A stretch of DNA of 18,683 bases, taken from positions 1-18,683 of the IMG/VR virus record IMGVR_UViG_2703718816_000002. The stretch is one strand, 5' to 3'. Origin of the DNA: a virus (lineage: Duplodnaviria; Heunggongvirae; Uroviricota; Caudoviricetes). The translations under genes and the position numbers were made by a program. Under the pieces are notes generated by a model. That model was not told the origin of the DNA, did not search any database, and saw only the letters and a list, made by a program, of their open reading frames with translations. Positions 5,319 to 6,403 of the stretch are shown one piece after another (the stretch's first letter is position 1; every line of letters starts with the position of its first letter).

Positions 5319-5338
5319 TCATCCAAACGTCTCTTCAC
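5319..5338. repeat. second copy of the cI 3'-terminal sequence, downstream of the 113-aa gene
   Basis: TCATCCAAACGTCTCTTCA at 5319-5337 versus TCACCCAAACGTCTCTTCA at 5690-5708 (cI stop plus its last five codons): 18 of 19 identical. On the minus strand the second copy reads ATG AGT GAA GAG ACG TTT GGA TGA (MSEETFG-stop), mimicking the cI C-terminus PEETFG-stop. Confidence 0.85.
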
Positions 5339-5680
5339 TCATCCGAAGAAGCAGCAATCCGGGTCAGCACGCACAAGCTCAAGCGCATCAGTCAGCGAAA
5401 GTTCAGTACTGTACTGATGCCATTTCATATCCTTCCGCATCCAATAGATTTTCCATCTATCCAGAGAACGTATGTACTTGATTCTTGCTGATGGCAGGAT
5501 GTTTGTTTCACCTGGGTTGCCCTGCCACACGGGGCGCTGTTCGCCGATATCTATCGTTTGGTCATTGATGCTATAAACAATATCCAGTTCATTGCGGATA
5601 TGTTCAGGCGGCCTTATGCTTTCAATGAATTGGTGAACTTCTTTTTTGACCGCTTGATATTCAAGGTCAGTGAACGCCAT
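5339..5680 (-). CDS. hypothetical protein (113 aa) immediately downstream of cI
   Basis: ORF-track 5339..5680. ATG at 5680, 9 nt after the cI stop, with GAGGAGG 5 nt upstream, so it should be co-transcribed with cI from pRM. Ends CCFFG. Bracketed by the duplicated cI 3'-end sequence. No family recognised. Confidence 0.6.
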   Translation of the reverse strand: MAFTDLEYQAVKKEVHQFIESIRPPEHIRNELDIVYSINDQTIDIGEQRPVWQGNPGETNILPSARIKYIRSLDRWKIYWMRKDMKWHQYSTELSLTDALELVRADPDCCFFG

Positions 5681-5689
5681 CTATCCTCC

Positions 5690-6403
5690 TCACCCAAACG
5701 TCTCTTCAGGCCATTGACTGGCGATAACTTTCCCCACAACGGAACAACTCTCATTGCATGGGATCATTGGGTATTGTGGGTTTAGTGGCTGTAAAAACAC
5801 CTGACCGCTATCCCTGATCAGTTTCTTGAAGGTAAACTCATCACCCCCAAGTCTGGCTATGCAGAAATCACCTGGCTCAACAGCCTGCTCAGGGTCAACA
5901 AGAATTAACATCCCGTCAGGAAAACTGGGTTTGGAACCTGTTGGTGCGGTCATTGAGTTACCTTCAACCTCAAGCCAAAATGCAGAATCACTGGCTTTTT
6001 TGGTTGTGCTTACCCATCTCTCCGCATCACCTTTGGTAAAGGTTCTAAGCTCAGGCGAGAACATCCCGGCCTGAACATGAGAAAAAACAGGGTACTCATA
6101 CTCACTTCTAAGTGACGGCTGCATACTAACCGCTTCATACATCTCGTAGATTTCTCTGGCGATTGAAGGGCTAAATTCTTCAACGCTAACGTTGAGAATT
6201 TTTGCAAGCAATGCTGCGTTATAAGCATTTAATGCATTGATGCCATTAAATAAAGCACCAACACCTGACTGCCCCATCCCCATCTTGTCTGCGACAGATT
6301 CTTGGGATAAGCCAAGCTCATTTTTCTTTTTTTCATAAATAGCTTTAAGGCGACGTGCGTCCTCAAGCTGCTCTTGTGTTAACGGTTTCTTTTTTGCGCT
6401 CAT
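5690..6403 (-). CDS. cI: CI repressor, lambda type (HTH plus LexA-like S24 autocleavage domain)
   Basis: 237 aa. [54 protein letters not shown]... to ...QWPEETFG is essentially the lambda cI sequence as I recall it. The ATG at 6403 lies at the edge of OR3, consistent with a leaderless pRM transcript. Confidence 0.97.

Follow-up and report, generated by a model that had tools for sequence, protein, structure and literature searches.

The window analyzed here, the whole 18,683-nt stretch of IMG/VR virus record IMGVR_UViG_2703718816_000002 (Caudoviricetes), carries a gene for a 113-amino-acid (aa) DUF3024 protein directly behind a lambda-type cI repressor gene, and this gene is bracketed by two copies of a 19-bp sequence. 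We confirmed the repeat; one copy forms the genuine end of cI, and the other is a leftover that does not encode protein. Based on sequence comparisons with related phages and prophages, we think it likely that the leftover is a relic of the end of a lambda-type repressor gene, that this repressor tail provides passive homology for the exchange of modules, and that the window arose by one crossover within positions 5300-5337. The genes in question are on the minus strand, and the "left" copy is thus the downstream one in the coding direction. Related loci are referred to by our own labels (L002 and so on) where they have to be told apart.

The right copy, TCACCCAAACGTCTCTTCA (5690-5708), and the left copy, TCATCCAAACGTCTCTTCA (5319-5337), match at 18 of 19 bases, the sole difference being T at 5322 versus C at 5693. 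They are the only matches to the 19-mer in the window when up to two mismatches are allowed, and a repeat search of the window recovered the same pair (repeat D8). The right copy is in frame with a 237-aa LexA-type open reading frame (ORF) and is part of a conserved "tail" of about 27 nt that reaches to about position 5716. The repeat proper is 19 nt long in the window, and the block conserved at the right copy extends to about 27 to 28 nt, (C)CAGTGGCCTGAAGAGACGTTTGGNTRA, in other genomes. The left copy begins 1 nt past the TGA of the 113-aa ORF. A first-pass annotation, made from the window alone, had read it as a vestigial cI C terminus, MSEETFG-stop; the EETFG-stop portion holds, but the preceding MS derives from the stop region of the 113-aa gene and is thus unrelated to cI. 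Two circumstances that the annotation had counted against its own proposal are absent, as canonical lambda carries the motif once, and relatives have the second copy between genes (in 933W, L0084 and the one that follows it) and not inside a conserved coding sequence. In the window, the left copy overlaps just the first 4 nt of a doubtful 162-aa version of the neighboring 144-aa ORF.

The resemblance of two unrelated 19-mers through chance or low complexity was ruled out by a shuffle test and has a negligible probability. The repeat is short, and nothing else favors coincidence. None of 200 dinucleotide-preserving shuffles of the window matched the 19-mer, the pair is kept 371 nt apart in hundreds of genomes, and repressor 3' ends align with both copies. 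The duplication that the annotation had reported around the 113-aa gene therefore stands.

We then followed the DUF3024 cassette through other genomes with a probe (window positions 5300-5716) that takes in the DUF3024 gene, the two 19-mers, and the 19 nt to the left of them. Of 5426 complete E. coli genomes, 248 have the cassette with both copies at 98 to 99% identity, as do 142 phage records, including 933W. The cassette stands behind an intact cI with a lambda-type C-terminal domain (lambda-CTD cI) in the window, L006, L013, and L053, behind a 933W-type cI in L002-L005, L007, and L008, and behind a third repressor, which ends …GRVFWSSHSW-stop just before the right copy, in L009. Because the stop codon of the 933W-type cI sits 32 nt upstream of the right copy (in the coding direction), the right copy is non-coding in these contexts. 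At least six situations are known on the left side of the cassette. The 144/206-aa ORF pair is found there in the window, L002, L053, L109, and L114, and genes for a RuvC-like protein and the Stk kinase in 933W and others. An NYN-domain gene is found in L007 and L130, with the junction exactly at the 19-mer end and a flank identical to the sequence after cI in phage ev099. L009 has a different gene set, L170 has yet another cargo, and L008 has DUF6978 plus DUF1828 without any left copy. The 144/206 pair, in turn, occurs behind lambda, VT1-Sakai-type, and 933W-type repressors as well as behind DUF3024. Since DUF3024 is found with at least five other downstream sets, and the pair is found alone behind three repressor types, the 113-aa gene is a separable unit, as had been proposed from the window.

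Among the closest known systems is the 933W immunity region around L0084 (NC_000924, 11673-12014), which shares the DUF3024 cassette at 98.3% nucleotide identity, with both tails and the 19-nt flank left of the repeat. Unlike in the window, both copies are non-coding in 933W, and the hairpin after the left copy is complete; the cargo is RuvC-like plus Stk kinase in 933W and the 144/206 pair in the window. A second DUF3024 allele (variant 2, approximately 83% protein identity) is followed by a diverged relic (13/19) and then by a complete terminator. The unit of DUF3024, relic, and hairpin is thus older than the present genome. Drift of the relic is also seen in the T variant, in CGTTTCTTCT variants, and in L009, where the left copy has two further mismatches and matches TCAYCCAAACGTCTCTTCA at 17 of 19 positions.

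The parentage of the window can be followed in two relatives. L013, which contains a lambda-type cI, DUF3024, the relic, the complete hairpin, and the 933W cargo, differs from window positions 5300-6450 at 3 of 1151 positions (99.74% identity). L122, in which a VT1-Sakai-type cI is followed directly by the 144/206 pair, differs from window positions 4602-5337 at 2 of 736 positions (99.73% identity) and shares with the window the T-variant tail and the 19-nt flank. The left copy in the window is identical to the real cI end of L122 (VT1-Sakai/mEpX1 type). The two homologies overlap solely in 5300-5337, that is, in the flank plus the left copy, and these 38 nt, common to both putative parents, are identical in all three sequences. 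The 38 shared bases would thus place a single homologous crossover in 5300-5337, with no in-place insertion and target duplication. The segment exceeds the minimal pairing lengths of both Red-beta (23 to 27 bp) and RecA (31 to 34 bp) (PMC3945230). A second breakpoint, at the right tail, is found when 933W is compared with L013, which differ by an immunity-module swap. The four bases beside the tail core, which are the stop codon and the wobble base of the last Gly codon, have a residual 0.16 bit given the cargo class, versus 1.67 of 2.13 bits given the repressor class. The stop and wobble base therefore travel with the cargo, which places the exchanges within the invariant core or, in the coding direction, just upstream of it. 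These sequence relationships, module combinations, and breakpoint positions were read directly from the compared sequences.

Genomes with the 144/206 pair straight after a single motif, predicted by the first-pass annotation, do exist. HK542 and HK244 are 97.8% identical to the window over the region and lack precisely the 371-bp unit, so that cI abuts the 144/206 pair at one copy. With a junction probe, the single-copy cI-144/206 junction was found in 32 complete E. coli genomes, and the two-copy arrangement of the window was found in six (RM10410, RM9088, OkiPb01678, OkiPb01712, MLI104K2, and SCU-104), with RM10410 matching the window arrangement at 100%. This exact presence or absence of a 371-bp unit between conserved neighbors (window versus HK542 and HK244) is the pattern of a moron-like element. 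HK542 is 98.4% identical to the window on the left and 96.6% identical in cI, and it differs at 5 of 19 flank bases and by a single-nucleotide polymorphism (SNP) in the tail. L207, checked from the 98.5%-identity class of E. coli matches, also has the HK542 flank allele, and no precise deletion product with a window-type flank was found in that class. Because of the flank allele, we rejected a simple insertion or deletion relative to HK542 as the direct history of the window. The annotation had left the choice between an insertion scar and a junction for module exchange; the exchange junction is favored by the reassortment and the breakpoints, and the gene insertion into an HK542-like phage at this site is not, given the flank allele.

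The tail also marks other module junctions, where the annotation had advised looking for it. A scan of IMG/VR with the exact 15-nt core returned at least 120 loci, with about a dozen unrelated chance matches. In the remaining matches listed, the core plus GGCCAY(TG) joins many different sequences on either side. Among these matches, which were picked by the exact 15-mer and include near-identical contigs, flank clustering of 125 tail occurrences gave 16 upstream and 33 downstream classes, and 14 of the 33 downstream classes were paired with at least two upstream classes. The tail core of 15 to 27 nt is identical while the flanks are unrelated, and its position is a gene or module border: the tail either forms the 3' end of the repressor gene or follows that gene immediately, and the cargo starts 0 to 8 nt from the stop. 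Among the matches listed, the tail ends an ORF of at least 200 aa only in the lambda-CTD class, a 216-aa VT1-Sakai-type class (99.5% identical to the cI of mEpX1 and VT1-Sakai), and one 240-aa class. In the remaining contexts, what follows the repressor is a non-coding stump of 6 to 43 codons, seen with at least seven other repressor ends (…EWLKSS of 933W, …GRVFWSSHSW, …ETKMRLV, …YRKHG, …LRYRR, …YSVLL, …AYNKL, and …HRIYRRKR, each followed by its stop).

To lessen the bias of selecting by the tail, we surveyed 83 loci anchored at the terminator Timm with at least 3.5 kb to its right. A tail with at most two mismatches lay 0.6 to 2.1 kb right of Timm in 70 of the 83 loci; 12 of these 70 had two tails, every pair 371 nt apart. 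The tail was present in 28 of the 41 Timm loci that had not been picked by the tail earlier, which is a lower bound. In 57 of 60 evenly spread E. coli records obtained with the HK542 junction probe, the cI-side homology ended between -8 and +6 nt of the start of the stop codon. As judged from these comparisons, the tail is the common right border of the cargo slot from the repressor gene to Timm in E. coli lambdoid phages.

Several observations on the tail stand apart from the window. In L064 (IMGVR_UViG_2869474005_000003, minus strand, approximately 1636-1740 of the reverse complement), a second gene is bracketed by two tails, independently of the DUF3024 case. These tails are 87 nt apart and enclose a 23-aa hydrophobic mini-ORF, MREYLIVGVVTLLSVVAIVLMVA, with its stop inside the second relic. 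L107, L112, L121, L126, and L128 belong to the same observation, and the MREYLIVGVVTLLSVVAIVLMVA ORF follows tails in several other contigs. In lambda itself (L131, NC_001416), the 36 nt right after the cI stop (2973-3008), ATCGGCAAGGTGTTCTGGTCGGCGCATAGCTGATAA, read IGKVFWSAHS-stop and match the coding 3' terminus of a further repressor class (…IIGRVFWSSHSW, then stop) at 29 of 36 positions. This stretch resembles a nested remnant, behind lambda cI, of some other repressor gene, and it is also present after the VT1-Sakai-type cI in L036, L091, and L102. In a scan of species-representative genomes (L210-L239), most exact matches to the lambda cI tail were in Limosilactobacillus, Shewanella, Desulfovibrio, Helicobacter, and other unrelated taxa, often on short or approximately 48.5-kb low-coverage contigs. 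This indicates contaminating lambda control or vector DNA, and the scan is uninformative on taxonomic range. One of these loci, L220, contains the cI end as a 120-nt tandem repeat at positions 1-240, which is an artefact.

The flank beside the left copy is half of a terminator hairpin that, in other phages, comes after repressor genes. In 933W, TGGATGGTCGCAGAGATGC continues as GGCC to form a complete 7-bp hairpin with no U-run. In other phages, 5 to 24 nt separate a tail-bearing repressor end or relic from GGTCGCAGAGATGCGGCC plus a run of 4 to 7 T, a combination predicted to form a strong terminator (-21.9 kcal/mol, z -4.9). In the window, other sequence has taken the place of the 3' arm, and no significant structure is predicted (z -0.6). 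The left copy and its flank are colinear with the repressor end and downstream sequence of other phages. The 144/206 module appears to have been joined within the hairpin, in a lineage where the pair also occurs without DUF3024.

We propose the following history. The left 19-mer would be what remains of a repressor gene of lambda type (…QWPEETFG), namely its final 19 bases. An early non-homologous join would have set a repressor end, the Shine-Dalgarno (SD) sequence, and DUF3024 before a repressor stump and its terminator hairpin, producing a cassette bracketed by two repressor tails; at most 3 nt of microhomology (TGA) are visible at the DUF3024/relic junction. Since the relics vary in length, the stumps would have originated in illegitimate joins, and the breakpoints that we mapped point to homologous crossovers that then reused them. 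Because about 15 to 27 identical bases are shared, the tail may serve passively as a short homology for the exchange of both repressor and cargo modules. Later exchanges at the tail or relic were probably carried out by phage Red/Rad52-like recombinases or host RecA. The window arrangement would then result from one homologous crossover between L013-like and L122-like partners inside the 38-nt "relic plus half hairpin." In these comparisons, the left copy and its 19-nt flank appear to travel with the cassette, and a crossover in the relic best explains the present arrangement. The direction of the events, the original non-homologous join, and the enzymes are what we infer from these relationships.

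E. coli 2013C-3492 (NZ_CP027445.1) holds two prophages, at approximately 762.8 kb and 1620.8 kb (H182 and L006). One is of the HK542 type (cI-144/206, single tail), and the other has lambda-CTD cI, DUF3024, the relic, and stk. Such a pair in one cell would supply natural substrates for the proposed crossover.

Four points weigh against this history. A 19-nt identity is shorter than the published efficient pairing length, and exchanges using only the left 19-mer (L007 versus ev099) need microhomology-level or relaxed recombination. The parents are deduced from extant relatives without a root, and events could have run in reverse, although this is disfavored because the 933W and variant-2 cassettes have the full hairpin. 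The class counts are not independent events, and the conservation of the core is partly built in, because of the exact-15-mer selection and the near-identical contigs. Finally, a function that escaped detection could be what keeps the non-coding relics perfectly conserved behind so many repressors.

The arrangement in the window resembles an insertion in place, in which DUF3024 entered an HK542-like genome by an event that duplicated 19 bp, either a mobile-element target-site duplication or staggered-cut repair. Direct repeats around an insert are the classic signature of such events, and HK542 and HK244 differ from the window by exactly the repeat-bounded unit. We nevertheless consider this origin improbable. 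Neither a transposase nor terminal inverted repeats are present in the 371-bp unit, whose only ORF is DUF3024. The same 19-mer is found at the cassette across contexts, including those with non-coding right copies, and the left copy and the next 19 nt continue one another as do the repressor ends and downstream hairpins of other phages. The HK542 flank and tail differ as described above, whereas L122 and L013 are identical to the window there. With relic and hairpin already present in the diverged variant-2 cassette, the structure is older than this genome. A transposon target-site duplication was therefore rejected, given the absence of a transposase and of inverted repeats at the unit ends and the occurrence of the same 19-mer in the different contexts. 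An integron attC-type cassette was also rejected, as neither copy folds significantly and the slot from cI to Timm holds no integrase.

A further possibility is that the tail is kept as a functional RNA or DNA element and not as mere homology, for example as a processing or translational-coupling site that sets cargo expression from the PRM transcript or as a site for a recombination enzyme. This would fit with the 15-nt core being identical, in non-coding copies too, after many unrelated repressor ends, with the presence of the tail at the border of 84% of Timm-anchored slots, and with the start of the cargo always a few bases from the stop codon. We judge it unlikely, though not quite as improbable as insertion in place. 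Neither 19-mer copy has significant secondary structure (z +0.74 and -0.57) or matches an Rfam family, and on these grounds an RNA-element identity of the tail was rejected. Substitutions build up in the non-coding copies, relic lengths range over 6 to 43 codons as random joins would give, 13 of 83 Timm-anchored slots are without the tail, and the exact-core sample inflates the apparent conservation. The stronger form, in which the tail is a cassette-exchange site actively recognized by a phage or host recombination or processing activity, or an RNA signal needed for cargo expression, seems to us about as improbable as an insertion in place. If true, an active exchange site would make the repressor-Timm slot an integron-like platform that shuffles defense genes, and either an active site or an RNA signal would explain the base-perfect non-coding stumps behind at least seven unrelated repressor genes. 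We thus retain passive homology and a single crossover as the explanation for the window.

Comparable borders are known in lambdoid phages. Clark et al. are said to have reported boundary sequences for HK620 in 2001. In the modular-evolution model of Susskind and Botstein, boundary sequences lie at the module junctions of lambdoid phages (summarized in PMC3233612). The tail resembles these boundary (linker) sequences in that it is a short conserved sequence exactly at a module border, with unrelated flanks, many combinations, and breakpoints within it. Unlike intergenic linkers, the boundary in the window is the coding 3' end of one repressor family, which survives as a stump after the repressor has been replaced. 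The boundary appears to combine an original illegitimate join, suggested by the relic lengths, with later homologous exchange. Both models of mosaicism, homologous exchange at short boundaries and illegitimate joins, are long established (PMC2327257; PMC3945230), and the window adds a base-resolved case to the debate between them. Studies of Red-beta/Rad52-like relaxed or homeologous recombination (PMC2327257; PMC3945230) offer an enzymology for crossovers in 20 to 40 nt of identity amid unrelated DNA; they measured exchange in longer diverged homologies, and the use of 19- to 38-nt islands is our inference here.

DUF3024 also resembles the morons of Juhala and Hendrix, being one additional gene that collinear phages either have or precisely lack, that is expressed in the prophage, and that may be defensive. 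Unlike morons, it has no promoter-like site upstream of it in the window, rides the repressor transcript, and is bounded by repeated repressor tails instead of unique joints. The hairpin downstream of DUF3024 is truncated in the window, has no U-run in 933W, and is complete in variant 2.

The cI-Timm locus itself has been described. According to bioRxiv 10.1101/2020.07.13.199331, which cites a 2007 paper on it, the cargo varies between conserved cI and Timm in HK244, HK542, mEp234, and others. GenBank records EF120456-EF120461 annotate Timm and nothing at the cI end; unlike the present account, they leave the relic copies, the two-tail cassette, and the occurrence behind non-lambda repressors unannotated. 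We found no paper or annotation on the tail relic, its two 933W copies, or its spread behind non-lambda repressors in a search whose coverage did not extend to Degnan et al. 2007, and a literature search with the motif sequences returned only cI857 cloning primers. The window locus is a newly documented, well-resolved example of a boundary sequence and recombination relic, and it reveals no new mechanism: tail-based swapping is ordinary phage mosaicism in unusually clear form. The slot behind the prophage repressor carries abortive-infection or exclusion genes (rexAB, Stk, BstA, and HicAB) and candidates such as DUF3024/PDC-S43, and its reshuffling bears on how lysogens acquire phage defense. 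The tail on one side and Timm on the other also offer a sequence handle for extracting cargo genes from lambdoid prophages.

Table 1. Features of the window from the cI repressor gene to Timm, in the order of transcription.
Feature	Position	Strand	Description
cI repressor, lambda-immunity type, 237 aa	5690..6403	-	Pfam Peptidase_S24 and HTH_3
Right 19-mer copy	5690..5708	-	Stop codon, last five cI codons (EETFG), and one more base
Spacer GGAGGATAG	5681..5689	-	Directly after cI stop; Shine-Dalgarno of DUF3024 gene
DUF3024 gene, 113 aa	5339..5680	-	933W L0084; phrog_3467; PADLOC candidate PDC-S43
Left 19-mer copy	5319..5337	-	Putative non-coding relic of repressor-gene 3' end, T variant
19-nt flank TGGATGGTCGCAGAGATGC (coding strand)	5300..5318	-	5' arm and loop of terminator hairpin
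144-aa ORF	4834..5268	-	phrog_5893, function unknown; strong SD AGGAGAATTT ahead of ATG
206-aa ORF	4217..4837	-	phrog_5820, function unknown; C-terminal hydrophobic stretch
Timm-like intrinsic terminator	4189..4210	-	Conserved left border of cargo slot

The cI gene of the window is approximately 96 to 97% identical in nucleotide sequence to those of lambda, HK97, and HK542. The SD spacer GGAGGATAG fills the 9 nt from the cI stop to the DUF3024 ATG and is kept in all cassette copies; no promoter-like site was found upstream of the DUF3024 gene in the window. The 113-aa protein matches PF11225 over profile positions 2-112 of 112 (E value, 2.4e-31; 108.7 bits, against a curated cutoff of 24.9), as well as PHROG family phrog_3467 (E value, 4.5e-67) and PADLOC PDC-S43 (E value, 7.2e-42). 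The gene is thus a candidate, predicted from its sequence, for a single-gene defense family. A PDB sequence search with the protein gave insignificant matches only, and our literature search found no paper mentioning DUF3024.

The 206-aa and 144-aa ORFs overlap by 4 nt. An in-frame ATG at 5322, with no SD, would extend the 144-aa ORF to 162 aa. The ATG of this extension (5269-5322) overlaps the stop of the relic (ATGA), and in some genomes it is the long form that PGAP annotates. HK542 has the extension open too, with non-synonymous changes and without an SD, so the start is uncertain. The conserved Timm block spans approximately 4100-4211 and is 85 to 97% conserved over dozens of loci; the window terminator corresponds to Timm as annotated in the HK244 record EF120457.

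Two sets of repeats lie on both sides of the immunity region. A 19-nt inverted repeat with CGCTGACAAAGCG is found at 3887-3905 (minus strand) and 6738-6756 (plus strand), and we take it to resemble the P22/21-type boxB hairpins of nutL and nutR; read in this way, it would match the N-peptide gene at 3374-3859. Repeats of the TATCACCGC type at 3971-4031 and 6414-6477 (repeats D3, D7, I1, and I8) correspond to OL and OR operators of the lambda type, in keeping with lambda immunity specificity.

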